From a virus (taxonomy: Duplodnaviria; Heunggongvirae; Uroviricota; Caudoviricetes), in IMG/VR virus record IMGVR_UViG_2713896900_000010: a stretch of 16,377 nt of DNA. The stretch is one strand, 5' to 3'. The notes under the pieces are model-generated. The model searched no databases. It saw only the letters and a program-made list of their open reading frames with translations, and had not been told where the DNA came from. Position numbers and translations under genes: made by a program. Positions 349 to 15,571 of the stretch are shown here, piece by piece; the stretch's first letter is position 1; each line of letters starts with the position of its first letter.

Positions 349-903
349 TTTTCATCTCCATATATCTTGCACCCTGTATGGACTCTGATGTGAGTTACAC
401 CACGGATATCCGCTAAGTTGGTGCAATTACTGCTTTTCAATACATTCAACACGCAAATAAATAATCACAATGTATATGCAATAAAAATTAAAACGAATTA
501 TAAATTCACAAAACAAATATATTATTTTCATTACATGTCTTATCAACAGGAGTGCCATTTTACACGATACTGTATACATATACAGTGCTATTTATCATTT
601 TTATCGCCTACTTTTCAAAAAGCTCGTTTCCCTCACAGTCGAGGATTTTTTTAAACAAACTTTAAAAATCAAATAAGTAACGACCATGATTGCAATATGT
701 CATCCCCTTCATTACACATAACGCAGGATTTATCTAACTGGCAGCCATTTTATCCTTAGTTCTCTATTTTGAGTTGGGAGATTAATTGGCGAACATGTTA
801 ATTCGAAGAGAACACATTTTTTAAAGTTATTTATTAAAGCTTTTTTCATTCTTCAGCAAAGAGATAAGCAGACACTGGTATCTCACTTATCAGGAGATAT
901 CGT
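349..903. promoter_or_regulatory. AT-rich divergent intergenic control region between the activator gene and the lysis/tail genes
   Basis: 555 bp at roughly 30% GC versus about 50-55% in flanking genes; many A/T tracts. The only ORF here (418-654) has no RBS and a low-complexity product. Contains the LexA-box-like palindrome at 568-587. Confidence 0.5.
568..587. promoter_or_regulatory. LexA (SOS) box-like operator
   Basis: TACTGTATACATATACAGTG matches the enterobacterial SOS box consensus TACTGT(AT)4ACAGTA at 18 of 20 positions, including both CTGT and ACAG half-sites with exact 8 bp spacing; the arms ACTGTATA/TATACAGT are a perfect inverted repeat. Which promoter it controls cannot be resolved from sequence alone. 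Confidence 0.6.
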
Positions 904-1191
904 ATGAAAAAAATCACTTTTCCCCGTCTTTCCGGTTGGCTGGCTGCAGCCATTGCTCTGATTGCATTGATCGGCTGGACATCTTCAGCACAAATTCCGG
1001 TCGTCATTTATAAACTAAGCCTGGTTTCACTTTCCGCAGTGCTGGGATACTGGCTCGATCGTAGTTTGTTCCCCTGGGCACGGCCTGACTTTTTTTGCCC
1101 CAGGAAGGAACCGCGTTGCTACGCAGCGGCAATGATTCGTCGCGCCATCATCGTGGCTGCAGTCTGCCTTTCCGTCGCGTTAGGGCTATAG
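904..1191 (+). CDS. Putative holin / lysis membrane protein (95 aa, about 3 predicted transmembrane segments)
   Basis: AGGAG 7 nt upstream of ATG; MKK start; three hydrophobic stretches (WLAAAIALIALIGW, IPVVIYKLSLVSLSAVLGYWL, AIIVAAVCLSVALGL); its stop overlaps the start of the downstream endolysin (TAGTGATG). Function inferred from size, topology and position. Confidence 0.5.
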   Translation: MKKITFPRLSGWLAAAIALIALIGWTSSAQIPVVIYKLSLVSLSAVLGYWLDRSLFPWARPDFFCPRKEPRCYAAAMIRRAIIVAAVCLSVALGL

Positions 1192-1193
1192 TG

Positions 1194-1799
1194 ATGTGGC
1201 TAAAATATATCGCGCCTATGATTATTTTCGTTCTTTTCCCGCTTAACGCGTCTGAACCACCACAAGCCTCTCTGGCATGGAGAAATGAATTGATTCGTAC
1301 CGCCCGAGAAGTCTGGGGACTGAACGCTCCGGTGGCTGACTTTGCCGGGCAATTACACCAGGAGTCCGCCTGGCAGCCAATGGTACGTTCCCCCGTTGGC
1401 GCACAAGGTATGGCGCAATTTATGCCTGCCACAGCGACATGGATAAGCCAACTGTATCCACAGCTACATGAAAACAAACCGTATAACCCAACCTGGGCAA
1501 TCCGGGCGTTGGTACAGTACGACCAGCATTTATGGAACAACATCTCTGCAAAAAATGATTGTCAACGTATGGCGTTTACTCTAAGCGCCTATAACGGTGG
1601 TCAGGGTTGGATTAACCGGGATAAAAAACTGGCGACAACAAAAGGGTTAAATGCCGCCATCTGGTTTGGTCATGTTGAGCAAGTCAACGCCGGGCGCAGC
1701 GCCGCAAACTGGCGAGAAAATCGTCACTATCCGAAGATGATTCTCTATCAACACGCCGCCCGCTACTTACTCTGGGGACAGGCAAGCTGTCTTCACTAA
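1194..1799 (+). CDS. Endolysin, soluble lytic transglycosylase (SLT domain) with N-terminal signal peptide or SAR domain (201 aa)
   Basis: Contains hallmark SLT motifs (catalytic-Glu context LHQESAWQP; GMAQFMPATA; AYNGG). The ORF track extends it to 1095, but the ATG at 1194 is coupled to the upstream stop, has AGGG upstream, and is followed by a hydrophobic N-terminus (MWLKYIAPMIIFVLFPLNA|SEPP). Confidence 0.8.
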   Translation: MWLKYIAPMIIFVLFPLNASEPPQASLAWRNELIRTAREVWGLNAPVADFAGQLHQESAWQPMVRSPVGAQGMAQFMPATATWISQLYPQLHENKPYNPTWAIRALVQYDQHLWNNISAKNDCQRMAFTLSAYNGGQGWINRDKKLATTKGLNAAIWFGHVEQVNAGRSAANWRENRHYPKMILYQHAARYLLWGQASCLH

Positions 1800-1811
1800 T
1801 CAGAGGGGCCG

Positions 1812-2126
1812 ATGAAACTCAGTATCGATTTTTGGGAAGTGATCTCCTTTATGCTTTCATTCGTTGGATTAATGTTTGCTGCCGGAAAATTGCTGTTAGC
1901 GCAAATTGAAAAAAGACTTAATGAGCGTTTTGAGTCCCTGGAAAATGCCCGCAGGGAATCAGAAACAAGCTGGTCGAAACTGGAAAGAGAATTTCTCGAA
2001 TTTCGTGCCGAACTTCCACTGTATTATGTCCGCAGAGAGGATTATCTTCGTGGACAAGCAGTATTAGAAGCAAAGCTGGATGCCTTATATAGCAAAATAG
2101 AGTTATTACAACGTGGCAGTTATTAA
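1812..2126 (+). CDS. Lysis-cassette accessory protein; N-terminal transmembrane anchor plus coiled coil (i-spanin-like or releasin-like), 104 aa
   Basis: GAGGGG RBS 4-9 nt upstream; one N-terminal hydrophobic helix (VISFMLSFVGLMFAAGKLLL) followed by a charged heptad-like region; position immediately after the endolysin. Function is an inference. Confidence 0.45.
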   Translation: MKLSIDFWEVISFMLSFVGLMFAAGKLLLAQIEKRLNERFESLENARRESETSWSKLEREFLEFRAELPLYYVRREDYLRGQAVLEAKLDALYSKIELLQRGSY

Positions 2127-2130
2127 ATAC

Positions 2131-2165
2131 ATCCCCACCTTTACGTAAGTGTGGGGATTTTTTAT
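2131..2165 (+). terminator. Rho-independent terminator after the lysis cassette
   Basis: Inverted repeat ATCCCCAC (2131-2138) / GTGGGGAT (2151-2158) followed by a run of six T (2158-2163), 5 nt after the stop codon of the 1812-2126 gene. Confidence 0.6.
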
Positions 2166-2272
2166 AACCATTCAATTTTTTCTCTAAATCACATTAAAAG
2201 ATTCTTCACTCTCACTGCTTCAGAATACATTTCAACGATAACGAAGTGAGCGGTAATTAAGGTACACCTCAT

Positions 2273-2728
2273 ATGAAAATTTTATCTGTAATGAATTATG
2301 TCGTGGTCAGATTACGTGATCGGCATCCTGAAATGGACATATTCATTTCATCTACGGATGCCCAAAAATATATTCCACAGACACAACAGATTACGGTGAT
2401 TATTAATTATAGCGGTTCTGTCTTCACCACGCCCGAAAGTAGTGATGCCATTGTACAACAGCAAATACTCCGCTTAACCGCCACCGTTATTGTTGGCAAA
2501 AATTGTGATGCGTTAAACGCACTTGATCACATACGCAGCGCATTGGGAGGCCTTCAGCCTCCTGATTGCGATCATCTTATTTGGCTTGAAAAAGAAATTA
2601 ATACGGGTGAGAGCGACGGTTTCTGCCGCTACATCCTGGAAATGGCGACCAGCTCGCTGTTTATCGCTGAACAGGACAGCACGGATCTTCCCCTGCTTAC
2701 TGAAGTTAATTACGAGGAAACTGAATGA
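2273..2728 (+). CDS. Hypothetical protein at the head-proximal end of the tail operon (151 aa); possible tail completion / sheath terminator-type protein
   Basis: ATG with AAGG upstream; first gene after the terminator; stop overlaps the next start (ATGA); occupies the position held by small tail-completion genes upstream of the sheath in Mu-type clusters. No motif recognised. Confidence 0.45.
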   Translation: MKILSVMNYVVVRLRDRHPEMDIFISSTDAQKYIPQTQQITVIINYSGSVFTTPESSDAIVQQQILRLTATVIVGKNCDALNALDHIRSALGGLQPPDCDHLIWLEKEINTGESDGFCRYILEMATSSLFIAEQDSTDLPLLTEVNYEETE

Positions 2729-2922
2729 AATATATCTACAACGGTCCGGCAAGCGGCGTCACCCTTGCCGACGGTCAAGAAATCTTATTATGGCCGAACA
2801 GTGAAATTGATCTGCCAGAAGACAATGAGTGGGTTATGACCATGATTGCCCGAAATCACTTGATTCTCATCATTCCCCAGGAAGAACAAAATAACGTAGA
2901 GGAAATTGTACATGGCAGCTAA
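2725..2922 (+). CDS. Small hypothetical protein (65 aa), translationally coupled between the upstream ORF and the sheath gene
   Basis: GAGGAAA RBS, ATGA overlap with the upstream stop, and its own stop overlaps the sheath start region. No recognisable motif. Confidence 0.4.
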   Translation: MKYIYNGPASGVTLADGQEILLWPNSEIDLPEDNEWVMTMIARNHLILIIPQEEQNNVEEIVHGS

Positions 2923-4333
2923 TTATCTGCACGGTGTAGAAACCATTGAAATTGAAACCGGCCCGCGTCCGGTAAAAGCAGTAAAATCTGCTGTAATCGC
3001 TTTAATCGGTACCGCTCCCTGTGGCCCGGTAAACCAACCGACGCTGTGCCTTTCTGAAAGTGACGCGGCACAGTTTGGATCGACTCAGGCTAACTTTACG
3101 ATCCCGCAGGCGCTGAAGGCGATTTATGATCACGGTGCCGGTACAGTGGTGGTAATTAATGTGCTGGATCCAGTAAAACATGGACTACACATTACCAATG
3201 AAACCATTACGTTCAATAGTGACGATAAAGCTAAATTAACTCATCCGGGGGTAAGTTCGGTAACGCTAAGAGCAAGTATCAGTTCCACTACATACAAAAA
3301 TACATCATACAGCGTTAATGCCGCTGACGGCGTTATTACCCGTACAGGAACTGAAATTGCGGCAGGAGCAAAGGTTTACGCGACTTATACCTATGTTGAC
3401 CCTACAAAGGTCACCGCAGCCGATATTATCGGGGCCGTTAATACCGCAGGCGATCGCACGGGGATGAGGCTCCTTCAGGACACTTATAACTTGTATGGTT
3501 TCTACGCCAAAATTCTGCTGGCACCCGTTTTTTGTACGCAAAAATCAGTGACTACCGAGCTGATTGCACAAGCGGAAAAACTCGGTGCGATTACCTACAT
3601 TGATGCCCCAATTGGGACTACATTCCAGCAGGTATTGGCTGGACGCGGTTCGCAAGGCGCAATCAACTTCAATACCAGCTCTGATCGTGCACGTTTATGC
3701 TACCCACACGTCAAAGTTTACGATGGCATCACTAACCAGGAAATTCTTGAACCTCTCTCTTCGCGCGCTGCCGGGCTACGTGCCAAAGTAGACCTCGAAA
3801 AAGGTTTCTGGTGGAGCAACTCAAACCAGGAAATTCAGGGTATTACCGGTATCGAACGTTCGCTTTCCGCAATGATTGATGATCCACAAAGCGAAGTGAA
3901 TCAGCTCAACGAAAACGGTATTACCACTATTTTCAATAGTTATGGTTCTGGTCTGCGCCTGTGGGGCAACCGCACAGCGGCATGGCCAACCGTGACTCAT
4001 ATGCGTAACTTTGAAAACGTTCGCCGGACAGGCGATGTAATTAATGAGTCAATCCGTTATTTCAGTCAACAGTATATTGATATGCCGATCAATCAGGCAC
4101 TGATTGACGCGCTGACCGAATCGGTAAATACCTGGGGCCGAAAACTGATTGCCGACGGCGCACTGCTTGGCTTTGAGTGCTGGTACGATCCGGCGCGAAA
4201 TTCACCGGCTGAACTCAGTGCCGGGCATTTATTGCTCAGCTATAAATTTACCCCACCGCCGCCGCTGGAACGTCTGACGTTTGAAACTGAAATTACCTCT
4301 GAATATTTAGTCTCTCTGGAGAGCAATCGCTAA
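2912..4333 (+). CDS. Contractile tail sheath protein (Mu L / P2 FI-like), about 473 aa
   Basis: Size and position immediately upstream of the tube gene; overall sequence character typical of myovirus sheath proteins. Preferred start is the ATG at 2912 (GAGGAAA 7 nt upstream) rather than the TTG at 2906 reported by the ORF track. Confidence 0.85.
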   Translation: MAANYLHGVETIEIETGPRPVKAVKSAVIALIGTAPCGPVNQPTLCLSESDAAQFGSTQANFTIPQALKAIYDHGAGTVVVINVLDPVKHGLHITNETITFNSDDKAKLTHPGVSSVTLRASISSTTYKNTSYSVNAADGVITRTGTEIAAGAKVYATYTYVDPTKVTAADIIGAVNTAGDRTGMRLLQDTYNLYGFYAKILLAPVFCTQKSVTTELIAQAEKLGAITYIDAPIGTTFQQVLAGRGSQGAINFNTSSDRARLCYPHVKVYDGITNQEILEPLSSRAAGLRAKVDLEKGFWWSNSNQEIQGITGIERSLSAMIDDPQSEVNQLNENGITTIFNSYGSGLRLWGNRTAAWPTVTHMRNFENVRRTGDVINESIRYFSQQYIDMPINQALIDALTESVNTWGRKLIADGALLGFECWYDPARNSPAELSAGHLLLSYKFTPPPPLERLTFETEITSEYLVSLESNR

Positions 4334-4857
4334 TGGCTGGAAAAATTCAAATTAACCGTATTACCAACGCCAATATTTATCTCGATGGTAATAATCTTTT
4401 AGGCCGTGCAACAGAAATTAAATTGCCAGATGTCAGTTTAATTATGCAGGAACATAAAGCACTGGGCATGGTGGGTAAAATAGAACTCCCGGCTGGTTTC
4501 GATAAACTGGAGGGGGAAATTAAATGGAACTCCTTTTACCAGGACGTAATGCGTAAAACGGCAAACCCGTGGCAGGCTGTAGCATTACAGTGTCGCTCCA
4601 GTATCGATTGTTATAACTCTCAGGGGAAAGCGAATCAATTAGCGTTAGTCACACATTTAACCGTGATGTTTAAAAAAAATCCACTGGGCACATTTAAACA
4701 GAATGAAAACCCGGAATTCAGCAGCGCCTTTGGCTGCACTTATATTAAACAAGTAGTCGATGGTGAAACGCTGCTTGAACTGGATTATATGGCGAATATT
4801 TTCCGCGTTAACGGCGTGGATCAATTAAGTACCTATCGCAATAACATCGGTGGCTAA
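4333..4857 (+). CDS. Tail tube protein (Mu M / P2 FII-like), 174 aa
   Basis: TAATG stop/start overlap with the sheath gene; size and position canonical for a tube protein following the sheath. Confidence 0.8.
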   Translation: MAGKIQINRITNANIYLDGNNLLGRATEIKLPDVSLIMQEHKALGMVGKIELPAGFDKLEGEIKWNSFYQDVMRKTANPWQAVALQCRSSIDCYNSQGKANQLALVTHLTVMFKKNPLGTFKQNENPEFSSAFGCTYIKQVVDGETLLELDYMANIFRVNGVDQLSTYRNNIGG

Positions 4858-4861
4858 GTTA

Positions 4862-4881
4862 TTCGGGGCTACGGCCCCGAA
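4862..4881 (+). other. Intercistronic stem-loop between the tube and chaperone genes
   Basis: Perfect 8 bp GC-rich stem TTCGGGGC / GCCCCGAA with a 4 nt loop (TACG), 5 nt after the tube stop codon; no following U-tract, so more likely an mRNA-stability or attenuation element than a full terminator. Confidence 0.5.
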
Positions 4882-4907
4882 CTCCGAAAAATAAATAAGG
4901 ATACAAA

Positions 4908-5225
4908 ATGAAAGAGCATTATATCTTACAGTTTCCCTTTACGTCGGCAGCAGGAAATAATATCGACACGCTACAATTACGTCGCCTGAAAGTCAAAGAT
5001 ATGCGTAATGCACGCCGGGTCAGCGAAAAGCCGGAAGAATGGGATGAACCGCTAATGGCAGCGATGACCGGGCTGGTACCAGAAGATTTAGCTGAAATGG
5101 ATTTGCTGGATTACCAGGCGTTGCAGAAACGATTTCAATCCATGCTTACCGTGGCTACAGAATCCCCCCTTGCTATGGCAGGCAATGGCGCTACTGGCGA
5201 GATGGTTTCGCTTTCCACCCAGTGA
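4908..5225 (+). CDS. Tail assembly chaperone, P2 gpE-like (105 aa)
   Basis: AAGGAT RBS; size and position between tube and tape measure; residue pattern resembles P2 gpE as I recall it. A possible frameshift extension is described in the findings. Confidence 0.6.
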   Translation: MKEHYILQFPFTSAAGNNIDTLQLRRLKVKDMRNARRVSEKPEEWDEPLMAAMTGLVPEDLAEMDLLDYQALQKRFQSMLTVATESPLAMAGNGATGEMVSLSTQ

Positions 5226-5300
5226 GATTGACTCGCTCACGATAGATGACTTTAGTCACTGGCTGGATGAAGCCAGCGCTCAAATAAAAATCGAATATGA

Positions 5301-5323
5301 CTCGCAGACCTGATGTCTGCGAG
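5301..5323 (+). other. Stem-loop in the chaperone to tape-measure spacer
   Basis: Perfect 9 bp inverted repeat CTCGCAGAC / GTCTGCGAG with a 5 nt loop (CTGAT), followed by TTCTTC; the loop contains the stop codon of the +1-frame extension ORF. Confidence 0.45.
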
Positions 5324-5413
5324 TTCTTCAAAGCTCGCCAGGTTTATTTCTTCCCAGCCCATTTTTCAGAAAACTAACCAGCGGGCCATCACCAATCTAT
5401 AAGAGAAACAATT

Positions 5414-7789
5414 TTGGCCAACGATATTATTACCCAGCTTCAGACGCGTAATGAGACGTTGACGCAGGCAATAGCCCGTTACGGCTCACTCAACGCCAGA
5501 ACATTGTTAGCACTCTCTTCTCAGCAAGCGGCAGTAATCAAACTAACGCAGCAACTTGCCGATTCCGCTCTCCGCCTGGAGGAAAATAGCCGAAACCGCG
5601 CTGATCTGATGGAGAAAACCCAAACATTTGCCGGGCAATTTAGCAAAGTATTCAATGTTGAAATCCTTGACTGGAAGTTGCCGTATGAGTTTCAGGACAA
5701 CATGGTCAATTTGGCGACCAAAGGTGGGATGAATGATACAACCCGCGAGACACTCAGCCTTAATCTGCGCGACTGGAGCATGGATTTTAACCAGCAGCAG
5801 ACCACCTTACAGAACGCAGCCCAGGTGCTAATCGAAGGTAATTTGTCGTCGATGCAGGATCTCAACCGTTATATGCCGGAGATCGCCAAAGCGGCCACCA
5901 CCACGCGCGAAAGTGCTGAAACATGGGCGAATGCCGCGCTCGCGACTCATGATCGACTGAATATTGCGCCAGAAAATTTCCACGCCGCGCAAAACATGAT
6001 GTACGGCATTAGCAAAAACGGTGGGCCTACCGTTGCCGGGCAAACACAGTGGATAGACAAATTTGCAGTTAAAACTGGCGCACAGGGTTTAGAAGGTATG
6101 GCTGAACTGACCGCCACAATGCAGATCGCAATGAAAAATGGTGCCAGCGCCAGTGTGGCGGCGGAGAATTTCGACCACTTTCTGCAAACCATCTTTTCGA
6201 AAAAAACCGATAACTGGTTCGTCAGCCAGGGCGTCGATCTGCAAGGCTCTCTGCTTGAACATCAGCAAAACGGCATGGGTGTTAGCGAAGCCATGATTCA
6301 TATCGTGCAAACGCAACTTGAGAAGATGAATCCGGCGATCCTCGACACCTTCAAACGCACCATGCAAATTGAAGATTTATCTGCTCGCAGCAACGCACTG
6401 CAATCGATAGTGACGCAATTTAATCTGGGCGAAATGTTCGGCGATGCGCAAACAGTGGAATTCCTGGCACCTGCGCTGGCGAATATGGAAGAGTATCGCC
6501 AGTTAAAAGCCTCCGCCATGCAAGACAGCGGTAAGAATCTGATTGACAACGATTTTTCTGTGCAGATGGCCTCGCCCATTGAACAAACTAAAACGTTACA
6601 ACTGGCGTTAAATGATTTATGGCTCAGCATTGGCTTGCAATTAATGCCGCTGATTGGCGAGTTGGCGCAAAGCCTTACTCCGGTGATTCGCCAGTTCAGC
6701 GCCTGGCTACGTGAACACCCGGCGCTGGTGCAAAACATTGCGAAAATCGTCGGAGCGATTTGGCTGTTTAACGGCGCACTGAATGTTTTAAAGCTGGGCG
6801 CGAACGTCATCGCCTCGCCGTTTATTCGTCTGGTCGATATCTTCCTGAAAGTCAGGGCAAGTCTGACGCTCACAGGCGCGGCAAGTAAGATGCTATCAGC
6901 GGTTAAGTCATTATATAACGGCGCAAAATGGCTAACGCAACTGCTTGGCCGTGGCCTGATTGGCGCATTGAAACTGGCAGGTCAGACCGTCTTCTGGTTG
7001 GGTAGAGTTTTATTGATGAATCCCATTGGTCTGGTCATCACCGCGATTGCGGGCGCTGCTTATCTGATCTATCGCCACTGGGAACCTATCTCCAGATTCT
7101 TTTCCGCCATCTGGCAACGTATCACCACGGCCTTTGACGGCGGCATTGCAGGGATTTGCCGGTTAATTCTCGACTGGTCGCCGCTGGAGTTGTTCTACAG
7201 CGCCTTTTCCAGTGTGATGAATTGGTTTGGTGTCGAGATGCCTGCAAGTTTTAGCGAGTTCGGCAGCAATCTTCTGGGCAGTCTGGTTGACGGCATAATG
7301 AATGCTTTCCCCGCTCTGAAAGGCATTATTGATCAGGTCAAAAACGCCTTACCGGACTGGCTAAAAACCACGATGGGTATTAGCACAGAAGGATCGGCTA
7401 CGGCTGTTACAAGCACGACGAATACCGCATCAATCTCCCCCACAACCGTTGTTCCAGGCGTTGCCGGAGCGATTTTAACGCCTCCTGTGGGCAAACAACT
7501 CGCGCCATCCAGTAAAACGACAACGTCGCCATCGACACCAGCGGCAAAAAATACAGCCGCCAAACCCGCATCGGCCTCTTTACCTGGTAAATCTGTAACC
7601 AAACCGGCGACGCTCCCCTCCCGTTCCTCTGGAAAAGTTCAGGTGAATTTTTCGCCACAAATTACCGTGCAGAGTAACGGACAAAACACCACTAAAGACA
7701 TTCAGAACGTGTTGACGATAAGTAAACGCGAACTGGAAAGAATGATTAACGACGTAATGGCGCAACAACAGCGCCGGGGGTATGCCTGA
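5414..7789 (+). CDS. Tail tape measure protein (791 aa)
   Basis: Largest gene of the cluster, directly after the chaperone; coiled-coil-rich N-terminal half, hydrophobic segments in the middle/C-terminal part, Ser/Thr/Pro/Ala-rich tract near the C-terminus. The first in-frame start after the upstream stop is a TTG at 5414 with a weak AAGAG motif upstream. Confidence 0.85.
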   Translation: MANDIITQLQTRNETLTQAIARYGSLNARTLLALSSQQAAVIKLTQQLADSALRLEENSRNRADLMEKTQTFAGQFSKVFNVEILDWKLPYEFQDNMVNLATKGGMNDTTRETLSLNLRDWSMDFNQQQTTLQNAAQVLIEGNLSSMQDLNRYMPEIAKAATTTRESAETWANAALATHDRLNIAPENFHAAQNMMYGISKNGGPTVAGQTQWIDKFAVKTGAQGLEGMAELTATMQIAMKNGASASVAAENFDHFLQTIFSKKTDNWFVSQGVDLQGSLLEHQQNGMGVSEAMIHIVQTQLEKMNPAILDTFKRTMQIEDLSARSNALQSIVTQFNLGEMFGDAQTVEFLAPALANMEEYRQLKASAMQDSGKNLIDNDFSVQMASPIEQTKTLQLALNDLWLSIGLQLMPLIGELAQSLTPVIRQFSAWLREHPALVQNIAKIVGAIWLFNGALNVLKLGANVIASPFIRLVDIFLKVRASLTLTGAASKMLSAVKSLYNGAKWLTQLLGRGLIGALKLAGQTVFWLGRVLLMNPIGLVITAIAGAAYLIYRHWEPISRFFSAIWQRITTAFDGGIAGICRLILDWSPLELFYSAFSSVMNWFGVEMPASFSEFGSNLLGSLVDGIMNAFPALKGIIDQVKNALPDWLKTTMGISTEGSATAVTSTTNTASISPTTVVPGVAGAILTPPVGKQLAPSSKTTTSPSTPAAKNTAAKPASASLPGKSVTKPATLPSRSSGKVQVNFSPQITVQSNGQNTTKDIQNVLTISKRELERMINDVMAQQQRRGYA

Positions 7790-8742
7790 TGTATGCCGTT
7801 TTAGGAGAGATTGAATTTAAGGTTGTCACATTCTGGGACGGCTTTAAAAGCACAATGGGCGTGGACTACGCCACACATGCCCGTATAGAAGGCAAACCCG
7901 GCGTGCAGTTTATTGGCGATAAGCTGGATATGCTGGCACTGGAATTTTCCTTGCACAGCCAGTTTTGCCAACCCACAACAGAGCTGAATCGACTGCGTGA
8001 AGCCATGCTTACCCACAAAGCGATGGCTCTGGTGTTTGGCAATGGCGATTATCGCGGCTGGTTTGTGATTACGGAGCTAACCGCCACCCACCAGCACACC
8101 GATCCCTGGGGCAATGTGATTGCTCAAAGCGGAACAATGTCGCTCCAGGAGTACACCGGCGCTCCTAAAAATCCACTCTTGCCCCCGGCAATTACTACCC
8201 AAGACCCGAATATTGACGAAAAGGCGAGCGATTTTCCAGACATGGTGGAGTCCTGGTTTGATCAGATATTGAACGCCATTGAAGAAGGTATGCGTAAGGC
8301 CAAAGAGATGCTCGATGAGCTGACTCAAGCCATTGAAGATATTAAAAAAACGGTGGCAAAAGTGAAAGCACTGGTTAAAGAGGCCAAAGCGTTAAAAGAA
8401 AAGTGTGAAAAGATAATTACGTCGTTGAAAAAGACTATCGACGCCATCGAAACCCTGTTTAAACAGCCCATGGATCTGCAAACGCTGGCAGGACTCCCAA
8501 AAGCGTTGTCGGCGCAGATTAACGCTTTACTGGGTAACATGCCAGGTATCCGGGACTGCGCCAAAGACGCCAGCACGCTGGTTGACCATGCTCAGGCGCT
8601 TTTCGACGACATTACCAACGACATCGCTGAAGCGACGTTCGATAAAGCCGCAACGTTGGTTGAGCAGGCACGAACAACGGTACAACAAACCACTCCCGCA
8701 GTGAGCCAGCTTGCTGCCGCGACCATTACGAGGAGCTGGTGA
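7789..8742 (+). CDS. Tail protein with gpU / Mu N-like N-terminal domain and long alpha-helical C-terminal extension (317 aa)
   Basis: ATGA overlap with the tape-measure stop; N-terminal ~120 aa follows the pattern of P2 gpU-type tail proteins; C-terminal half is Ala/Lys/Glu-rich and heptad-like; occupies the Mu gene N position. Confidence 0.55.
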   Translation: MYAVLGEIEFKVVTFWDGFKSTMGVDYATHARIEGKPGVQFIGDKLDMLALEFSLHSQFCQPTTELNRLREAMLTHKAMALVFGNGDYRGWFVITELTATHQHTDPWGNVIAQSGTMSLQEYTGAPKNPLLPPAITTQDPNIDEKASDFPDMVESWFDQILNAIEEGMRKAKEMLDELTQAIEDIKKTVAKVKALVKEAKALKEKCEKIITSLKKTIDAIETLFKQPMDLQTLAGLPKALSAQINALLGNMPGIRDCAKDASTLVDHAQALFDDITNDIAEATFDKAATLVEQARTTVQQTTPAVSQLAAATITRSW

Positions 8743-8951
8743 TGCGATACCTTGAACATATCACCACCGACGGCGAACGCTGGGATAATCTGGCATGGCA
8801 TTACTACGGCGATGCGCTGGCTTATGAACGCATCATCGCCGCCAATCCACATGTCGCCATTTACCCGGTACTGCCTTCCGGTATTCAACTCATTATTCCG
8901 GTCATTTCCGTCAACAAAACCTTATCGGAGATACCACCATGGCTGAGATAA
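8742..8951 (+). CDS. Tail protein X-like (LysM-like, P2 gpX family), 69 aa
   Basis: ATG at 8742 overlapping the upstream stop, AGGAG 6 nt upstream; the motif LEHITTDGERWDNLAWHYYGD...IIAANPHV resembles the gpX LysM-like signature; sits just before the gpD-like gene as in P2/Mu-type clusters. Confidence 0.65.
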   Translation: MRYLEHITTDGERWDNLAWHYYGDALAYERIIAANPHVAIYPVLPSGIQLIIPVISVNKTLSEIPPWLR

Positions 8952-9979
8952 GCGTATCTGGTGGCGTCTTTGCCACACTCGCGCCCATTTTTACCCTTTG
9001 GTATGGACATAAAGATATCACTTATGACATCACGCCCTATGTCACCAGCATCAGTTACCACGACAGCATCAAAAACGAGTCAGATACCATCGCCATTACA
9101 CTGGATGACACCGATGGACGTTGGATAAAAGAGTGGTATCCCGGCAAAGGCGATACGCTGGCGCTGCATATGGGTTATCAGGGGGAGACGCTCCTCGATT
9201 GCGGTCAGTATATTATTGATAAAATTGATATTTCAGCACCACCTTCCACGGTAAATATTGATGGCATTGCCACTTCCGTCAATCAGGCGCTGCGTACCCG
9301 TAACAGTCAGGGCTTTGAAGAAACGACGCTTTCGGCCATCGCCAGTCGTATCGCGCAAACTCACGGTCTGAAGCTGGTGGGCAAAATCGAGCCGCTGGCG
9401 ATTGACCGGGTGACACAGTACGGCGAAACCGATGTTGGATTTCTCAAGCGTCTGGCCAGCGAATATGGCTATGCCGTGAAAGTGACGACAAAAGAGCTAA
9501 TTTTTTCACATCTGCCGACACTACGCTGCCTGGCGCCAGTGAAAACCATCGACCGCAAAGAGGTTTCGCACTTTACCTTCAAAGACACCATTAATCGCAT
9601 CTACAAGAACGCCACCGTACAGCATCAAAATAGTAAGAAAAAAGAACTGGTTATCTACACTCACGACAGCCAGCAAAAACCGTCAGCCCGTGGAGTCGGC
9701 ACCAGTGCCGACACGTTGAAACTCAACAGCCGGGCGACGGATGTTGGCGCGGCACAGGCAAAGGCCAACGCTGCACTCGACAGCCACAACGAATATCAGC
9801 AAACCGGAACACTCAGGATGATGGGCTGCCCGGAACTGACAACAGGCAATAAAATCGAACTCATTGATTTTGGTATTCTTTCTGGACAATGGCTGATTGA
9901 TAAATCTACTCACAGTTTTGTGCGCAGCGGCTATACCACTGAAATCGACGTTTCGCGCGGGCCAGCAACCAGCCAGTAA
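8939..9979 (+). CDS. Baseplate hub protein, P2 gpD / Mu P-like (346 aa)
   Basis: Size, position after gpU/gpX-like genes, GGAG RBS; overall pattern consistent with late control gene D family tail proteins. Confidence 0.8.
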   Translation: MAEISVSGGVFATLAPIFTLWYGHKDITYDITPYVTSISYHDSIKNESDTIAITLDDTDGRWIKEWYPGKGDTLALHMGYQGETLLDCGQYIIDKIDISAPPSTVNIDGIATSVNQALRTRNSQGFEETTLSAIASRIAQTHGLKLVGKIEPLAIDRVTQYGETDVGFLKRLASEYGYAVKVTTKELIFSHLPTLRCLAPVKTIDRKEVSHFTFKDTINRIYKNATVQHQNSKKKELVIYTHDSQQKPSARGVGTSADTLKLNSRATDVGAAQAKANAALDSHNEYQQTGTLRMMGCPELTTGNKIELIDFGILSGQWLIDKSTHSFVRSGYTTEIDVSRGPATSQ

Positions 9980-9988
9980 GGAGGCACT

Positions 9989-10648
9989 ATGAAGGGAGTA
10001 ACCCGGCAAACGGGGATTATCAGCGATATTGACGAAACCAGCGTTCGGGTGCGAGTCACACTGCCAGAGTGCGACAATCTGAAGAGTAACTGGCTTGCGG
10101 TACTTCAACGTAATTCCCAGGACAATAAAGACTACTGGCTACCGGATATGGGTGAGCAGGTGGAAGTTCTGCTGGACGACAACGGCGAAGATGGCGTGGT
10201 ACTTGGGGCCGTTTATTCTACGGTTGACACCGCGCCTGTGGCCTCGCGAGATAAACGTTACGTCCAGTTTTCTGATGGCGCAGCGTTTGAATATGACCGC
10301 AGCACACACCAGCTTACGATTAACGGCGGTATTGAGAAAATCGTGATTGAGGTTATTGACCGTACTAACCTGACATCACCCAACGTTGAGGTTAAAGCCC
10401 AACAAGTCACCGTGACTTCCGATACCGTCGATATTAAAGCGGCGACAGTGACGGTAGATGCGCCCATGAGCACCTTTACTGGTAACGTCACGGTAATGAA
10501 AAAACTCACCTGGCTGGGTGGCATGGCAGGAAGTGGAGGCATCGGTAACGCCGCCACGATAACTGGCAATGTCAACGTGATTGGTAACGTTCAGGCCAGC
10601 GGCACATTGCAGGATAGCGGTGGTAACTCAAATCACCATTCACACTAG
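9989..10648 (+). CDS. Baseplate central spike, P2 gpV / Mu gp45-like (219 aa)
   Basis: Strong AAGGAGG RBS; N-terminal OB-fold-like region followed by repetitive beta-strand-rich Val/Thr segment (VTVTSDTVDIKAATVTVDAP...) and a C-terminal His cluster (NHHSH) typical of spike apexes. Confidence 0.8.
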   Translation: MKGVTRQTGIISDIDETSVRVRVTLPECDNLKSNWLAVLQRNSQDNKDYWLPDMGEQVEVLLDDNGEDGVVLGAVYSTVDTAPVASRDKRYVQFSDGAAFEYDRSTHQLTINGGIEKIVIEVIDRTNLTSPNVEVKAQQVTVTSDTVDIKAATVTVDAPMSTFTGNVTVMKKLTWLGGMAGSGGIGNAATITGNVNVIGNVQASGTLQDSGGNSNHHSH

Positions 10649-10653
10649 CTTTT

Positions 10654-10684
10654 AACCCGCCTGATGGCGGGTTTTCTCTTTTTA
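10654..10684 (+). terminator. Rho-independent terminator inside the baseplate module
   Basis: Stem AACCCGCC (10654-10661) / GGCGGGTT (10666-10673), loop TGAT, followed by TTCTCTTTTT; 6 nt after the spike gene stop. Confidence 0.7.
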
Positions 10685-10746
10685 ATCAATCAGTTTTCTA
10701 AATCGCTTTAATATCCCCACTGTCCGTTCAGGGCGAAAATAAGCAC

Positions 10747-11106
10747 ATGAACACAAAAACACGCCCCTCAACGCTGCACTGGCAACCCGCCTTGCAGCGG
10801 CCTGAAGAATACGTCTGCGGACTGGATGATATTCACCAGGCAATACACATCATTCTGCGCACGCCGCGCGGCAGTGATCCCCACAGACCGCTGTTTGGCA
10901 GCAACTTGTGGCACTACATCGATTACCCCATCGAGCGGGCAATCCCGCATGTGGTACGGGAGTCGATGGAAGCCATCCGCCAGTGGGAACCGCGATGTCG
11001 GTTGCTGAAGGTAGCACCGATAATCGACGGTGAACATCTGACGTTACGTGTGCAATGGCGCGCCGCTGACGGCGTAATCAACTCAACGGAGGTGTTATGG
11101 CGATAG
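10747..11106 (+). CDS. Baseplate wedge protein, gpW / gp25-like (119 aa)
   Basis: Size and position before the J-like gene; product overlaps the downstream start by 10 nt. Confidence 0.75.
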   Translation: MNTKTRPSTLHWQPALQRPEEYVCGLDDIHQAIHIILRTPRGSDPHRPLFGSNLWHYIDYPIERAIPHVVRESMEAIRQWEPRCRLLKVAPIIDGEHLTLRVQWRAADGVINSTEVLWR

Positions 11107-12212
11107 CCGAACCCAATTTTATTGACCGCGATCCTGCGCAAATTACCAGCGAGATGATTGCGCAATACGAAGATGCCAGCGGTAAAAAACTCTATCCGGC
11201 ACAGGCCGAACGGTTACTCATCGACCTGTTTGCCTATCGTGAAAACCTTGTGCGCATCGCCATTCAGGAAGCGGCGAAACAAAACCTGGTCGCGTATTCC
11301 CGCGCACCAATGTTGGATTATTTAGGGGAGCTGGTGGGTGTTCACCGTTTACCTGCGCAACCGGCAAAAACGACGTTGCAGTTTTCGGTCGTCAGTGCGT
11401 ATACCAGCAATATCCTGATTCCCCAGGGGACGCGGGCCAGTGCCTCTGACAGCGTGATGTTCGCCACCGATGAAGATGTTCTGCTTCCGGCCAGGAGTTT
11501 GCATATCGCCGTTCCGGCCACCAGCCTCGCAGCAGGTGAACAGGGCAATGGCTGGCAGCCTGCACAGATTAGCGCCCTTGTTGACAGGATCGGTTATTAC
11601 GATATCAACGTGACTAATCTGACTCCCACAACCGGCGGTTGTGGTGAAGAGAACGATGATGCACTACGCCAGCGTATACAACTGGCGCCAGAAAGCTTCA
11701 GTAATGCCGGCAGCTATGGCGCATATCGCTTTCATACACTTTCGGTTAGCCAGTCAATTATTGACGTTGCAGTACTGGGGCCAGATGAAGGGTTGCCAGA
11801 AGGCTGCGTCGAGCTCTACCCGCTAACCCTGAATGGTCTGCCGGGAACCGAGCTACTCGCGCAAATTGAACAAGAAGTGAGTAAAGAGAAAAAACGTCCG
11901 CTGACTGACAAAGTAAGTGCGAAATGTGCTCTTAGGGTGCCGTATGAAATTCGTGCGCAGCTAACGCTGTTTACCACCGCCGATCAGGAGACAACACTGG
12001 CTGCGGCGCGTAAAGCGATTAGCCTCTGGACGCAACAGCGGCAGAAACATCTGGGGCAGGACATTGTGCCAAACCAGATAATCAAAGTGTTACAAGTCGA
12101 TGGTGTCTATGACGTTGTGCTGAACATGCCTACAAAACGTATTTTGCAGGCGCATGAATGGGCGGAATGCACTGTAATAGACGTCACGATTGCCGGAGTC
12201 AGCGATGGATAA
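11097..12212 (+). CDS. Baseplate J-like protein (P2 gpJ / Mu gp47-like), 371 aa
   Basis: GGAGGTG RBS; size and position canonical for the baseplate J family; overlaps the downstream start. Confidence 0.8.
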   Translation: MAIAEPNFIDRDPAQITSEMIAQYEDASGKKLYPAQAERLLIDLFAYRENLVRIAIQEAAKQNLVAYSRAPMLDYLGELVGVHRLPAQPAKTTLQFSVVSAYTSNILIPQGTRASASDSVMFATDEDVLLPARSLHIAVPATSLAAGEQGNGWQPAQISALVDRIGYYDINVTNLTPTTGGCGEENDDALRQRIQLAPESFSNAGSYGAYRFHTLSVSQSIIDVAVLGPDEGLPEGCVELYPLTLNGLPGTELLAQIEQEVSKEKKRPLTDKVSAKCALRVPYEIRAQLTLFTTADQETTLAAARKAISLWTQQRQKHLGQDIVPNQIIKVLQVDGVYDVVLNMPTKRILQAHEWAECTVIDVTIAGVSDG

Positions 12213-12837
12213 ATTGCTGCCACCGCCGCCGCTTGCCAGCGATGAGCGTTTTTCAACTCTGGCAAATATCGCCGCCGAACGTTTTGCGCAACTCGATCTG
12301 ACGGCATTAATGATATACCTGGTCGACCTGGTTGATGCTTCGGCATTACCTGCCCTTGCAGAACAATTTCACGTTCAGGGGCTGGAAGGTTGGTTATTTA
12401 CTACTGATGAACAAGAGAAGCGTGAGTTAATTAAGCGAGCCATTGAGTTACATAAATATAAAGGAACAGTTTGGGCGGTACGGCGAGTACTGGAAATACT
12501 CTCATTGCCTGGAACTATTGCCGAATGGTTTGAATATGGCGGGAAAGCTTATTTTTTTAAGGTTGATATAGAACTGGTGGATAAAGGCATGGATGAAAAC
12601 CTTTTCAATGAGTTAGTTGAACTCATTCATGAATATAAAAACACACGTTCAAAACTGGAAGCATTAATCGTCTGGATCATTAACCAAAGTGCTATCCCTG
12701 TTATTAGCTGTGCGCTTTATGGGGGTGAACTGACGACGCTTTTACCTTTCCAGATACGGGAAGTACAACAAAACACAACAATCTTTTACGGAACAGGGCA
12801 ATGGAGCCTTGAAATTACATCTATTTACCCGGAGTAA
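12190..12837 (+). CDS. Baseplate/tail protein I-like (P2 gpI / Mu gp48-like), 215 aa
   Basis: Follows the J-like gene with overlapping coupling and precedes the tail fiber gene, the conserved J-I-H order. Confidence 0.7.
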   Translation: MPESAMDKLLPPPPLASDERFSTLANIAAERFAQLDLTALMIYLVDLVDASALPALAEQFHVQGLEGWLFTTDEQEKRELIKRAIELHKYKGTVWAVRRVLEILSLPGTIAEWFEYGGKAYFFKVDIELVDKGMDENLFNELVELIHEYKNTRSKLEALIVWIINQSAIPVISCALYGGELTTLLPFQIREVQQNTTIFYGTGQWSLEITSIYPE

Positions 12838-12839
12838 TT

Positions 12840-14498
12840 ATGGATAATGAGTTTTATACCCTCCTGACCGACAGGGGGATGGCAAAAATTGCCAGTGCTC
12901 TTGCGGATAAAAAACAACTACATCTGCAAAAGATGGCCGTTGGAGACGGCGGTGGGCAATATTACGAACCCTCGGCGAGTCAAGCAAAATTACGTCATGA
13001 AGTATGGCGTGGTGAGTTAAATACATTAACAGTTGCACCCAGTAATCCTAACTGGTTAATTGCGGAACTTGTACTGCCCGAAAATATCGGCGGCTGGTAT
13101 GTACGTGAAGTCGGCGTTTTTGATACTGACGGCGAACTTATTGCTATCGGTAAATTCCCAGAATCGTATAAACCGCTATTACCCGGCGGCAGCGGTAAGC
13201 AAGTTTGCATTCGTCTCATTATGGAAGTTTCCAACACGACTGCGGTAACACTCACCGTTGATCCCAGTATTGTACTGGCAACACGTGATTATGTTGATTC
13301 ACAACTGGATAAACATGCACGTTCGACTAATCATCCTGATGCTACGTTAATGCAAAAAGGCTTTACGCAGTTGAGTAACGCCACTGACAGTGATGACGAA
13401 ACTAAAGCGGCTACGTCAAAAGCGGTAAAAGCGGCGATGATTGAGGCACGAAACCATCGTCATACCTGGAGTCAAATTACTGATATTCCAGATGGTACGC
13501 TGACTCAAAAAGGAATTGTGAAGCTAAATAACGCGACCAATAGCACCAGCACGACGGAGGCAGCGACACCGAGCGCGGTTAAGGCGGCGTATGACCTGGC
13601 AAATGGTAAAGCTGCAGGCAGTCATACGCATCCCTGGGGGCAGATTACGGGTATTCAGGATGGCACCCTGACGCAAAAAGGGATTGTGAAGCTGAATAAT
13701 GCGACGGACAGCAACAGCACGACGGAGGCAGCCACGCCGAGTGCGGTTAAGGCGGCAATGGATAAGGCTAATGCTGCAGCTCCGGCTAATCATACTCACA
13801 CTAGTTTTTATACTACAAATGGAACATTTACAGTTCCTGATGGCGTAACTACATTATTTGTGGAAGTTATGGGCGGCGGCGGTGGTGGTGCCGGAGGAGC
13901 ACAATCATCATATTATGAAGCATGTGGTGGCAATACAGGTGAATTGCTCGTTGGTTACTTAAACGTGGAACCAAGCCAGCATTTTTCAGTAAAGGTTGGG
14001 GCTGGAGGTAATGGAGGTCCATTTTGGAATAATCCACCTGTTTCACAAGTAAAGTATTCATCGGATAACACAGAGAAAACACAAAAAAGCTTTGATGGTG
14101 GTGACTCTTCATTTTCTAATATGATTGCCAAAGGAGGTCATGGGGGATATAACATTTATCACTTTAACACTACGCAGCCTTGTATAAAATTCATTGACCA
14201 TCCAAATACTTATGCACCTGGCGCAATACGGTTATATGCAGAATTTTATCCTGGCAAGAATGGTGAAAATTCCATATATGGAAAAGGAGGGAGCGCTGGC
14301 ACTGTTATTACAGAATATCTGGATAATGGTGGAAGTAAGGCAATAATGACACATCCGACACCAGCAATAGGCTATGGTTCTGGAGGAGCGGGAGGATCTT
14401 ATTTGCCTCCTTTTGAATATGACAATAATGAATTAACAAACTTAGGCAATACTAGCGGAACAAAAGGTGCCTCTGGTTTCGTAAAAATATCATGGTAA
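12840..14498 (+). CDS. Tail fiber protein (552 aa) with conserved N-terminal domain, tandem shaft repeats and Gly-rich low-GC C-terminal receptor-binding region
   Basis: N-terminus (MDNEFYTLLTDRGMAKIASALA...WLIAELVLPENIGGWYVREVGVFDTDGELIAIGKFP) is the conserved baseplate-attachment domain of Mu S / P2 H / lambda Stf-type fibers; three tandem repeats with the motif TLTQKGIVKLNNAT...AATPSAVKAA; C-terminal ~230 aa rich in Gly motifs. Confidence 0.85.
   Translation: MDNEFYTLLTDRGMAKIASALADKKQLHLQKMAVGDGGGQYYEPSASQAKLRHEVWRGELNTLTVAPSNPNWLIAELVLPENIGGWYVREVGVFDTDGELIAIGKFPESYKPLLPGGSGKQVCIRLIMEVSNTTAVTLTVDPSIVLATRDYVDSQLDKHARSTNHPDATLMQKGFTQLSNATDSDDETKAATSKAVKAAMIEARNHRHTWSQITDIPDGTLTQKGIVKLNNATNSTSTTEAATPSAVKAAYDLANGKAAGSHTHPWGQITGIQDGTLTQKGIVKLNNATDSNSTTEAATPSAVKAAMDKANAAAPANHTHTSFYTTNGTFTVPDGVTTLFVEVMGGGGGGAGGAQSSYYEACGGNTGELLVGYLNVEPSQHFSVKVGAGGNGGPFWNNPPVSQVKYSSDNTEKTQKSFDGGDSSFSNMIAKGGHGGYNIYHFNTTQPCIKFIDHPNTYAPGAIRLYAEFYPGKNGENSIYGKGGSAGTVITEYLDNGGSKAIMTHPTPAIGYGSGGAGGSYLPPFEYDNNELTNLGNTSGTKGASGFVKISW
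13314..13790 (+). repeat. Three tandem ~55 aa / ~165 bp repeats within the tail fiber shaft
   Basis: Protein repeats ending at HRHTW / HTHPW / HTHT; the DNA of units 2 and 3 (about 13501-13590 versus 13669-13758) is roughly 85% identical. Confidence 0.6.
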
Positions 14499-14504
14499 TT
14501 AAAA

Positions 14505-15119
14505 ATGACAAAATATGCATGTTTTGATCCTGAAACATTTGTTGTTTTGGACTGGTTCGATACAGAACGTTACAACTATCCCAAAGTAGAACATTTAGTT
14601 GAAATAACTGATCAGCAATGGCAGATATATGCAAGAGATAATATTCCAACTTGGATTAACTGTGAAGATTTATCCTTCATTTCTATGCCACCACCAGATA
14701 AATTTCACAAACTGAAAAAAGGAGAATGGATAGTTGATACAGATTCAATACTTAAATTTATTTCAGAAATAAAAGAAGATATAATAAGAAGAGTAAAATC
14801 CAAACGAGATTACATCACAACCGATTACATCATCCTCAACGGCCATCACTTCCACAGTGATACAAATAGCCGAATCCAACAACTCTCACTCACAAAAATG
14901 GGAGCCGAAAAACAAATTCCGCCAGGTTTAATGTGGAAAACTAAAAATAACGGTCTGATTGAGTTAACCAATGAAATCGCCGCCCAGTTTGAATCCGTCA
15001 CCATGGCTCACGATATGCGCCTGTTTGCCAACGCCCAGCGCCATATTACGGCGGTGGAAGCTCTGGGCGATATTCAGGCGGTGCTCGACTACGACTACTC
15101 CACAGGCTGGCAACCATGA
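14505..15119 (+). CDS. Tail fiber assembly protein (Tfa/U-like chaperone), 204 aa
   Basis: Immediately downstream of the fiber gene; C-terminal half (higher GC) resembles the conserved Tfa domain ending ...DYDYSTGWQP; N-terminal half is low-GC like the fiber C-terminus. Confidence 0.7.
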   Translation: MTKYACFDPETFVVLDWFDTERYNYPKVEHLVEITDQQWQIYARDNIPTWINCEDLSFISMPPPDKFHKLKKGEWIVDTDSILKFISEIKEDIIRRVKSKRDYITTDYIILNGHHFHSDTNSRIQQLSLTKMGAEKQIPPGLMWKTKNNGLIELTNEIAAQFESVTMAHDMRLFANAQRHITAVEALGDIQAVLDYDYSTGWQP

Positions 15120-15571
15120 GTAAAACCACTGTCTGGCTCGCTTGCTATAAAGGCAGAACAGAGCACCGAGGTATTGCGCAACTAGCTGACTGGCTTACCC
15201 GTAAAATCACACGCGGCAGTTATTCCCACTGCGAGTTAGCAGTGGTACATGGTGAAAAAAATTACCTTTGCTACTCTGCATCACTGCGCGATCGCGGTGT
15301 ACGCGGAAAGATAATGCCACTACCGTCAGATAAGTGGGATATGCTGCCGCTCCAGGCTAGCTTTCAGGATGTGGAAGCTTTTTTCCATAAACATAATGGC
15401 AAAAAATACGACTGGCGCGGAGCCTTAGGAATTATCACTGGCAATAAAGAACAGCGCAATCGTCTGTTTTGCAGTGAATTTTGCGCCGAGTTTCTGCAGT
15501 TAAAAGAGAGTTGGCGCTATTCCCCAAACCATTTGTATGCTTTAGTCAGCAGTTGGCAATATCAGCCGTAA
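15116..15571 (+). CDS. Hypothetical Cys/His-rich protein (151 aa), translationally coupled to tfa; possibly a permuted papain-fold (NlpC/P60-like, YaeF/YiiX-type) enzyme
   Basis: ATGA overlap with the tfa stop; the motifs SHCELAVVHG and LFCSEFCAEF put a His upstream of a C-terminal Cys as in permuted NlpC/P60 amidases. Family assignment is tentative and from recall. Confidence 0.45.
   Translation: MSKTTVWLACYKGRTEHRGIAQLADWLTRKITRGSYSHCELAVVHGEKNYLCYSASLRDRGVRGKIMPLPSDKWDMLPLQASFQDVEAFFHKHNGKKYDWRGALGIITGNKEQRNRLFCSEFCAEFLQLKESWRYSPNHLYALVSSWQYQP

Follow-up and report, generated by a model that had tools for sequence, protein, structure and literature searches.

An exchangeable fibre-tip and half-chaperone cassette in a tailocin-like tail cluster of Escherichia albertii, probably a long-lived targeting polymorphism

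The exchange of a tail-fibre tip and the N-terminal domain of its assembly chaperone as a single unit is already established in Mu, Pam3, the syringacins and carotovoricin (PMC6331570, PMC13195805), and the locus examined here thus adds to a known kind. It lies in a 16,377-nucleotide (nt) stretch of DNA recorded as IMG/VR virus record IMGVR_UViG_2713896900_000010, the whole of which we refer to as the window; judged by its sequence, the element looks like a headless, Mu-type contractile-tail cluster of the R-type tailocin kind in the chromosome of Escherichia albertii, the species to which exact protein matches assign the DNA. At 13800-14800 of the window, the segment that codes for the fibre tip and for the first half of the next gene differs among related copies of the cluster. 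We consider it highly likely that this segment is a specificity cassette, representing a long-lived targeting polymorphism within the tailocin-like cluster and not a recent import.

In the Pam3 gp24-gp25 structure (PDB 7YPX/7YFW), the non-conserved N-domain of the chaperone binds the fibre's TNF-like (tumour necrosis factor-like) domain and its Gly-rich domain. In solved complexes this N-domain grips the tip and the conserved C-domain drives assembly (PMC9608196); the same two-domain model is found in North et al. 2019, to the extent that this work is cited in PMC7882524. The fibre in the window resembles gp24 in its predicted TNF-like and glycine-rich tip fold. It differs in having a P2-H-type N-domain and a Phage_fiber_2 shaft, where Pam3 has a helical bundle, and in the long allele-specific insertions carried by the loops between its glycine motifs; the C-domain of its chaperone is DUF4376, with no detectable sequence match to any solved chain, and the element as a whole is a headless enterobacterial cluster.

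The Tfa proteins of Mu, lambda and P2 (Caudo_TAP, PF02413; North et al. 2019, in what PMC7882524 cites of it) are likewise encoded immediately downstream of the fibre gene, and likewise have a variable N-domain that is matched to the tip and exchanged with it, followed by a conserved C-domain. The window protein differs in having no Caudo_TAP domain, and only the class C alleles described below carry a Caudo_TAP N-terminal part, fused to DUF4376. Alteromonas V22 gp27 and A5 gp9, and the partner of the Campylobacter CJIE1 H-fibre, share with the window protein a C-terminal DUF4376, a length of about 200 amino acids (aa) and a gene position right after the fibre; these are required chaperones, without which, as experiments have shown, the fibre is not functional (PMC7289586, PMC10579305, PMC7882524). 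Their N-domains and tips differ from those found here, and the swapping of N-halves on a fixed DUF4376 lay outside the subject of those studies. The R-type syringacins (PMC6331570) and carotovoricin (PMC13195805) are, as here, headless clusters at a fixed site whose diversity lies in the fibre and chaperone, with clean allelic replacement discordant with the flanks and with alleles common to several species. The present locus differs from them in taxon (Escherichia, Salmonella and relatives) and in tip families; furthermore, its right-hand breakpoint lies inside the chaperone gene, so that only half of the chaperone is exchanged.

The genes and domains concerned are arranged in the window as follows.

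12190..12837, plus strand: baseplate protein gpI (Tail_P2_I; Pfam PF09684, E = 4.8e-34).
12840-14498, plus strand: tail-fibre open reading frame (ORF) of 552 aa, with N-domain PF12571, three Phage_fiber_2 repeats and a C-terminal Gly_rich_2 domain.
12840..13289, plus strand: P2-H-type N-terminal baseplate-attachment domain of the fibre, aa 1-150 (Phage_tail_fib PF12571, E = 8e-61).
13344..13781, plus strand: fibre shaft of three Phage_fiber_2 units (PF03406, three stretches).
13803..14495, plus strand: fibre tip, aa 322-552, a predicted TNF-like beta-sandwich with a glycine-rich lattice and the presumed receptor-binding domain; first variable part of the cassette.
14505..14798, plus strand: N-half of the chaperone, aa 1-98, the putative tip-cognate domain; second variable part of the cassette.
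14799..15119, plus strand: C-half of the chaperone, aa 99-204, DUF4376, the presumed oligomerisation and assembly domain; conserved right homology arm.
15116..15571, plus strand: conserved ORF of 151 aa whose start overlaps the chaperone stop (PHROG 1128, E = 1.6e-57).

We compared loci from E. albertii, E. coli, Salmonella, Superficieibacter and Lelliottia, with counts drawn from 5426 complete E. coli genomes, and found at least four cassette classes at this locus.

Class A: the Gly-rich tip and the chaperone N-half of the window; 40 E. coli genomes and E. albertii, with a class-A-like allele in Salmonella.
Class B: another, GC-richer Gly-rich tip, with an N-half distantly related to that of class A; 6 E. 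coli genomes and Salmonella.
Class C: a tip with a Collar domain and His-rich repeats, and a chaperone whose Caudo_TAP N-part is joined to DUF4376; found in about 149 E. coli genomes and in E. albertii, Superficieibacter and Lelliottia.
Class D: a 498-aa fibre with a short tip and a 217-aa chaperone; E. albertii.

Each E. coli genome with class A or B has a single chromosomal place for the cassette, and those with class C have no more than two; within E. albertii an identical 151-aa downstream protein is found beside classes A, C and D. Similarity between the window and E. coli class B ends at 13752-13800 and resumes at 14782-14827. The E. albertii class C locus matches the window at 100% as far as about 12520, midway through gpI, and then once more beyond about 14834. 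The Superficieibacter cluster becomes similar again at 14796 and that of Lelliottia at 14823. The right-hand return of similarity falls at 14773-14830 in cross-allele comparisons and at about 15000 in class D, for which the junction is a mosaic (60-75% identity over 14789-14999, about 100% from ~15000). A preliminary description of this DNA, made from its letters alone, had proposed that the fibre tip and the N-terminal half of the next gene form an exchangeable module with breakpoints near 13790 and 14850. The allele comparison breaks at both edges, and the two positions are correct to within about 50 bp, the left lying at ~13760-13800 and the right at ~14800-14830. The right junction corresponds to codon ~99 of the chaperone, beyond which the protein is near-invariant, and the shaft repeats on the left and the DUF4376-coding half on the right constitute natural homology arms.

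The cluster contains no ORF for a site-specific invertase or recombinase, its minus strand holds no alternative tip, and the only inverted repeats found are imperfect and 15-18 nt long. Variation therefore arises by allelic replacement and not by inversion; an invertible host-range segment of the Mu G/P1 C type was considered and rejected, there being neither an invertase, nor significant inverted repeats, nor a tip on the opposite strand.

A second, larger boundary is seen to the left. After ~12520, gpI is 65-72% identical to its counterparts at the E. albertii class C and D loci, as against 100% before that point. The protein has 238 aa in classes C and D, compared with 210 aa where the fibre is of the window's type, and identity in the N-domain of the fibre is no higher than 60-75%; the C-terminus of gpI and the N-terminus of the fibre thus seem to co-vary as a nested larger cassette with its left edge at ~12520. 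The class D locus (L024 2355-4504) has a tip of ~70 aa with no Pfam match and a chaperone with a novel N-half, its DUF4376 part being diverged up to ~15000.

The base composition of the segment had been the starting point of the preliminary description, which reported GC contents (guanine plus cytosine) of 62, 38, 25 and 62% in four 60-bp samples; in the same samples we obtained 60.0, 36.7, 25.0 and 60.0%. Flanks of about 60% are indeed present at the sampled places, but they are only local peaks, as the GC content of the whole window is 47.7%. The last shaft repeats have 54.8% and the C-half of the chaperone 48.3%, while 13790-14850 has 37.6%, which places it among the lowest 0.65% of all 1061-bp segments of the window (the lowest, at 36.9%, starts at 13907); the chaperone N-half on its own has 30%. 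Apart from this, a second low-GC stretch (39%), which the preliminary description did not include, covers 12380-12860 in the C-terminal part of gpI.

A GC dip of this kind might be a by-product of amino-acid composition or of chance, given that Gly, Asn, Tyr, Lys and Ile abound in the tip, as do Asp, Ile and Lys in the N-half. The fall is, however, strongest at third codon positions: in the tip (13800-14495) the GC content at these positions (GC3) drops to 0.24, and over the first 98 chaperone codons to 0.19, whereas fibre aa 1-320 have a GC3 of 0.43 and the C-half of the chaperone has 0.56. A two-breakpoint likelihood scan of 12840-15571 gave a log-likelihood ratio of 19.9, while none of 30 codon shuffles exceeded 7.9, and homologous tips and N-halves from GC-rich organisms have GC3 of 0.58-0.74. 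Because the drop sits at synonymous sites it is not an effect of amino-acid composition, which the GC3 analysis led us to reject as the cause, and composition or chance as an explanation appears exceedingly improbable.

We found that the GC3 trough is common to all classes in E. coli, Salmonella and Superficieibacter, with values of 0.22-0.37 in the tip, 0.19-0.40 in the N-half and 0.43-0.75 in the flanks. Low GC is thus a mark of the exchangeable core in general, and not of this allele as a recent import. The trough may be caused by a shared AT-rich pool of alleles, or by suppressed recombination and gene conversion inside non-homologous cores.

The composition could nonetheless be read as the sign of a recent import, from a phage or host of low GC, that has not yet ameliorated. 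Its GC3 of 0.19-0.24 is far below that of the flanks, other alleles with clear breakpoints exist at the same site, and Gly_rich_2 tips are widespread among phages, all of which would accord with such an origin. However, between the window and E. coli class A the synonymous divergence (dS) is 0.32 in the tip and 0.23 in the N-half, which is like that of the other cluster genes (0.13-0.64) and of chromosomal rlaP (0.51); because of this resemblance, the class A allele is taken to predate the divergence of the two copies. Furthermore, the trough recurs in the class-A-like Salmonella allele, whose tip is 66% identical at the aa level, and classes A, B and C in three genera all have low GC3 in both tip and N-half. 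Among 50,697 phage records none was found to carry this cassette, the sole match being a 6-kb unverified Salmonella fragment (OR850896.1, 'Salmonella phage S.Kent 1-2-1', UNVERIFIED_ORG; locus L012) that is an orthologous piece of the cluster with a class B tip, and is probably host DNA. We therefore regard a recent import as unlikely; 'horizontally acquired', the wording of the preliminary description, can stand for allelic exchange at some past time but not for a recent arrival, as divergence is like that of the flanks and the trough is present in every class.

Class C alleles of E. coli and E. albertii are 85-92% identical. Since same-class alleles in both species have diverged like their flanks, the sequences point to a trans-species polymorphism, with classes that would be as old as, or older than, the divergence of the E. 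albertii and E. coli copies. Classes A and C occur in both species with species-level divergence, which is why we favour a long-lived targeting polymorphism, one that balancing selection may have maintained.

Family membership of the fibre was judged against Pfam gathering thresholds. Gly_rich_2 (PF21722) matches the fibre with 34.4 bits (cut-off 24.3), aa 325-552 corresponding to positions 1-225 of the 226 in the profile, and a profile made from relatives of the tip retrieves 905 proteins, nearly all of which are annotated as PF21722; in NCBIfam neither the fibre nor the chaperone nor the 151-aa ORF had a match. Glycine makes up 19% of the tip and 7% of the rest of the fibre, and the five Gly-rich motifs listed in the preliminary description are all present, at fibre aa 345, 387, 431, 481 and 513. 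A structural model of the tip, built from a 129-sequence Gly_rich_2 alignment, has a predicted local distance difference test score (pLDDT) of 83.8 and a predicted template modelling score of 0.80, its three low-confidence stretches being the long insertions between Gly motifs. The model superposes on the solved Pam3 gp24 tip over most of the domain, so far as a model can tell giving the tip the TNF-like plus Gly-rich fold of that protein. The same fold is matched by 278 predicted viral structures at E<=1e-3, and among the best 50 of these most of the named ones are tail fibre, minor tail or glycine-rich-domain proteins. The tip thus belongs to a phage fibre-tip family, in agreement with its earlier description as a module of the phage receptor-binder type.

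The same description had likened the tip to the gp38-type adhesins of T-even phages. In its general plan the comparison is sound: in gp38 (S16 gp38, PDB 6F45), as here, conserved Gly motifs alternate with hypervariable specificity segments, and local similarity of the Pam3 gp24 Gly-rich domain to gp38 has been reported (PMC9608196). [quoted passage not shown] The extracellular glycine-rich (TG) domain of ALK/LTK is different again, belonging to a eukaryotic receptor of unrelated function whose Pfam family, Gly_rich (PF12810), is not matched here. Between E. albertii and E. coli class A, amino-acid replacements cluster in the stretches between Gly motifs, and the ratio of nonsynonymous to synonymous divergence (dN/dS) is 0.31 in the tip (dN 0.099), compared with 0.03-0.17 in other genes. 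Both the clustering and the raised ratio fit loops that may contact a receptor, the variable loops lying at about fibre aa 395-420, 437-470, 488-510 and 521-540.

The downstream gene (14505-15119, 204 aa) begins just after the fibre ends at 14498, and the same gene order is found in all related loci. It had been identified as tfa in the preliminary description, an identification that does not hold: there is no Caudo_TAP (PF02413) match, and the sole Pfam match is DUF4376 (PF14301) at aa 88-196 (48.7 bits against a cut-off of 25, E = 1.1e-12). By comparison with the DUF4376 partners of other fibres, the protein is predicted to be a fibre-assembly chaperone. The two-part organisation suggested for it was found as described, in that the C-half is near-invariant across five genera and the N-half is class-specific, being as variable between classes as the tip.

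An exhaustive search of 1.84 billion representatives with the N-half gave 12 hits, of which ~7 look genuine and several are spurious long proteins; a word-index protein search gave only 2 fragments. In the genuine homologues the N-domain is followed by one of three kinds of C-terminus: DUF4376, a part with only a weak, below-threshold resemblance to Phage_tail_APC/Caudo_TAP, or a part that carries no annotation. In every retrieved context their gene directly follows that of a Gly_rich_2-ended protein, whatever the C-domain. Collar/His-repeat tips, in turn, are always paired with Caudo_TAP-N chaperones at class C loci; the Caudo_TAP N-part of these, fused to DUF4376, scores 31 bits in locus L003, 22.6 in L010 and 23.0 in L011 (cut-off 22.1). 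The N-half is therefore a tip-specific module, as the preliminary description had supposed in calling it the part cognate to the tip. The N-domain family paired with Gly_rich_2 tips appears to be a new point, as does the DUF4376 half as a fixed socket for N-domains of differing origin. These pairings give a previously unannotated N-domain its partner tips and extend the two-domain chaperone model to DUF4376 proteins.

It is also conceivable that the DUF4376 protein is more than a folding chaperone and remains part of the finished fibre, as a cap or adhesin at the distal end in the way of gp38 on T2-type fibres or as a transient chaperone cap, its N-half joining in receptor recognition or gating it. 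TfaMu is reported to stay fibre-bound (PMC7882524), the Alteromonas DUF4376 chaperones have been described as transient caps (PMC10579305), and the variability of the N-half between classes equals that of the tip. When the class A alleles of E. albertii and E. coli are compared, however, the N-half is conservative (dN 0.052, dN/dS 0.23) in comparison with the tip (dN 0.099), and the Pam3 chaperone binds the side of the tip, its release being proposed by the authors as necessary before virion maturation (PMC9608196). We thus consider a cap role possible but improbable, and retain the assembly chaperone as the preferred reading.

The cluster as a whole occupies 1-15571 of the window and is a complete headless Mu-type tail cluster, equivalent to 1141-16900 of the E. 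coli class A locus L001. Its genes run in the order Mor, holin, SLT, Gp37, sheath, tube, tape measure, baseplate, fibre and chaperone, with gpJ and gpI upstream of the fibre. On the left, the Mor activator adjoins lysC and pgi in both E. coli and E. albertii; on the right the border is formed by the ordinary chromosomal genes rlaP, slipin and yjbD, so that the cluster sits between lysC and rlaP/yjbD, with the RlaP nucleotidyltransferase gene downstream on the opposite strand. The chromosomal site is the same in the two species, and in Salmonella yjbD and rluF lie to its right. The content of the cluster between lysC and rlaP includes no head, packaging, replication or integration genes. Given a contractile tail, a regulator and lysis genes without these others, at a fixed chromosomal site, the gene content is that of an R-type tailocin. 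It follows from this headless context that 'killing range' is more likely to apply than the 'host range' of the preliminary description.

We found the cluster in 196 of the 5426 E. coli genomes (~3.6%) and in E. albertii, whereas RlaP alone is present in 1629 E. coli genomes. A scan of species-representative genome contigs with the DUF4376 half, at one genome per species, gave 3 loci, and the representative Escherichia genomes had no cluster. Literature searches, both for a tailocin at lysC in E. coli or E. albertii and for PF21722, found nothing relevant, and this polymorphic, tailocin-like locus of Escherichia is apparently undescribed. Locus L009 (JAEZCC010000043.1) bears the label 'MAG: Bacillota bacterium'; it matches the window at 88-91% identity and in the pattern seen with the E. 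coli class A locus L001, and for these reasons is probably a mis-binned Escherichia contig.

The absence of head and integration genes, the occurrence of the cluster in only 196/5426 E. coli genomes, and occasional frameshifts and an IS1 insertion could all be expected of a decaying prophage remnant, in which case allele diversity would be a neutral relic of different ancestral phages. In the window, however, the tail, lysis and regulator ORFs are all intact; dN/dS of the structural genes is 0.00-0.17 between E. albertii and E. coli, and the two species have the cluster at the same chromosomal site. In addition, different cassettes within E. albertii are surrounded by identical flanks, and hence reflect replacement inside a resident cluster and not separate integrations. 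On these grounds we find a prophage remnant very unlikely, and prefer a maintained tailocin-like cluster with exchangeable targeting alleles.

Several results nevertheless weigh against the specificity cassette as we understand it. Some copies of the cluster are decaying, as the chaperone is split by a frameshift into 75 + 129 aa in one E. albertii strain (L030 3891-4504), gpJ is frameshifted in one E. coli genome (L004 1501-2615), and another (H119) has IS1 in the fibre/chaperone region. The N-half family is tiny (12 hits), so the co-occurrence rule is based on ~8 loci. A profile of the chaperone gave no significant match to PDB sequences, and its likeness to Mu Tfa and Pam3 gp25 is for that reason a literature-backed analogy; a single-sequence AlphaFold2 model of the chaperone reached a pLDDT of 31. 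Tailocin activity is predicted from the gene content.

Taken with the described systems, the observations suggest how the cassette may work. The tip (fibre aa 322-552) would form a TNF-like beta-sandwich bearing a lattice of glycine-rich strands, and the allele-specific loops between these strands would be the parts most likely to touch the receptor on the target cell. By analogy with Pam3 gp25 and Mu Tfa, the N-domain of the chaperone (~98 residues) would grip the side of its cognate tip, while the near-invariant C-terminal DUF4376 domain would oligomerise and drive trimer assembly. Because they must match, tip and N-domain would be inherited and exchanged as a single unit, presumably by homologous recombination between the shaft repeats (or mid-gpI) and the DUF4376-coding sequence.

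A more far-reaching reading is that DUF4376 serves as a universal socket for unrelated N-domains (the Gly_rich_2-specific one, Caudo_TAP and a third type), that the cassettes are a balanced polymorphism predating the split of E. coli and E. albertii and kept by a domesticated Escherichia tailocin, and that the GC3 trough is the mark of a core in which inter-allelic recombination, and with it GC-biased gene conversion, is suppressed, and not of foreign origin. We put this forward tentatively and, taken as a whole, regard it as doubtful. The junctions themselves provide a natural map of cut-and-swap points, after the last shaft repeat and at codon ~99 of the chaperone, which can be put to direct use when tailocins or phages are to be retargeted against Escherichia and Salmonella, and the targeting alleles of this locus appear to be maintained across species.

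Some minor features of the locus were also recorded. The last two shaft units form a tandem pair of 168 nt (56 aa) each, at 13446-13613 and 13614-13781, which are 77% identical (direct repeat D1). One unit more is present in the fibre of E. coli class A (L001) than in that of the window (608 vs 552 aa), and thus fibre length varies with repeat copy number. The 151-aa ORF, which has a CSEFC motif and no Pfam or NCBIfam match, is kept in every related cluster examined, including that of Lelliottia; the label of its PHROG 1128 match, enoyl-CoA hydratase-like, is probably a mislabel. In several E. albertii genomes (L006, L008 and L024-L029), the right flank, equivalent to the part of the window beyond 15586, has the RlaP and slipin genes replaced or truncated. 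In their stead there is a gene for a GT4 glycosyltransferase (Pfam GT4-conflict), which in some cases is accompanied by a 242-aa ORF. A gene that modifies surface sugars, when placed beside a tailocin, could be related to self-protection.

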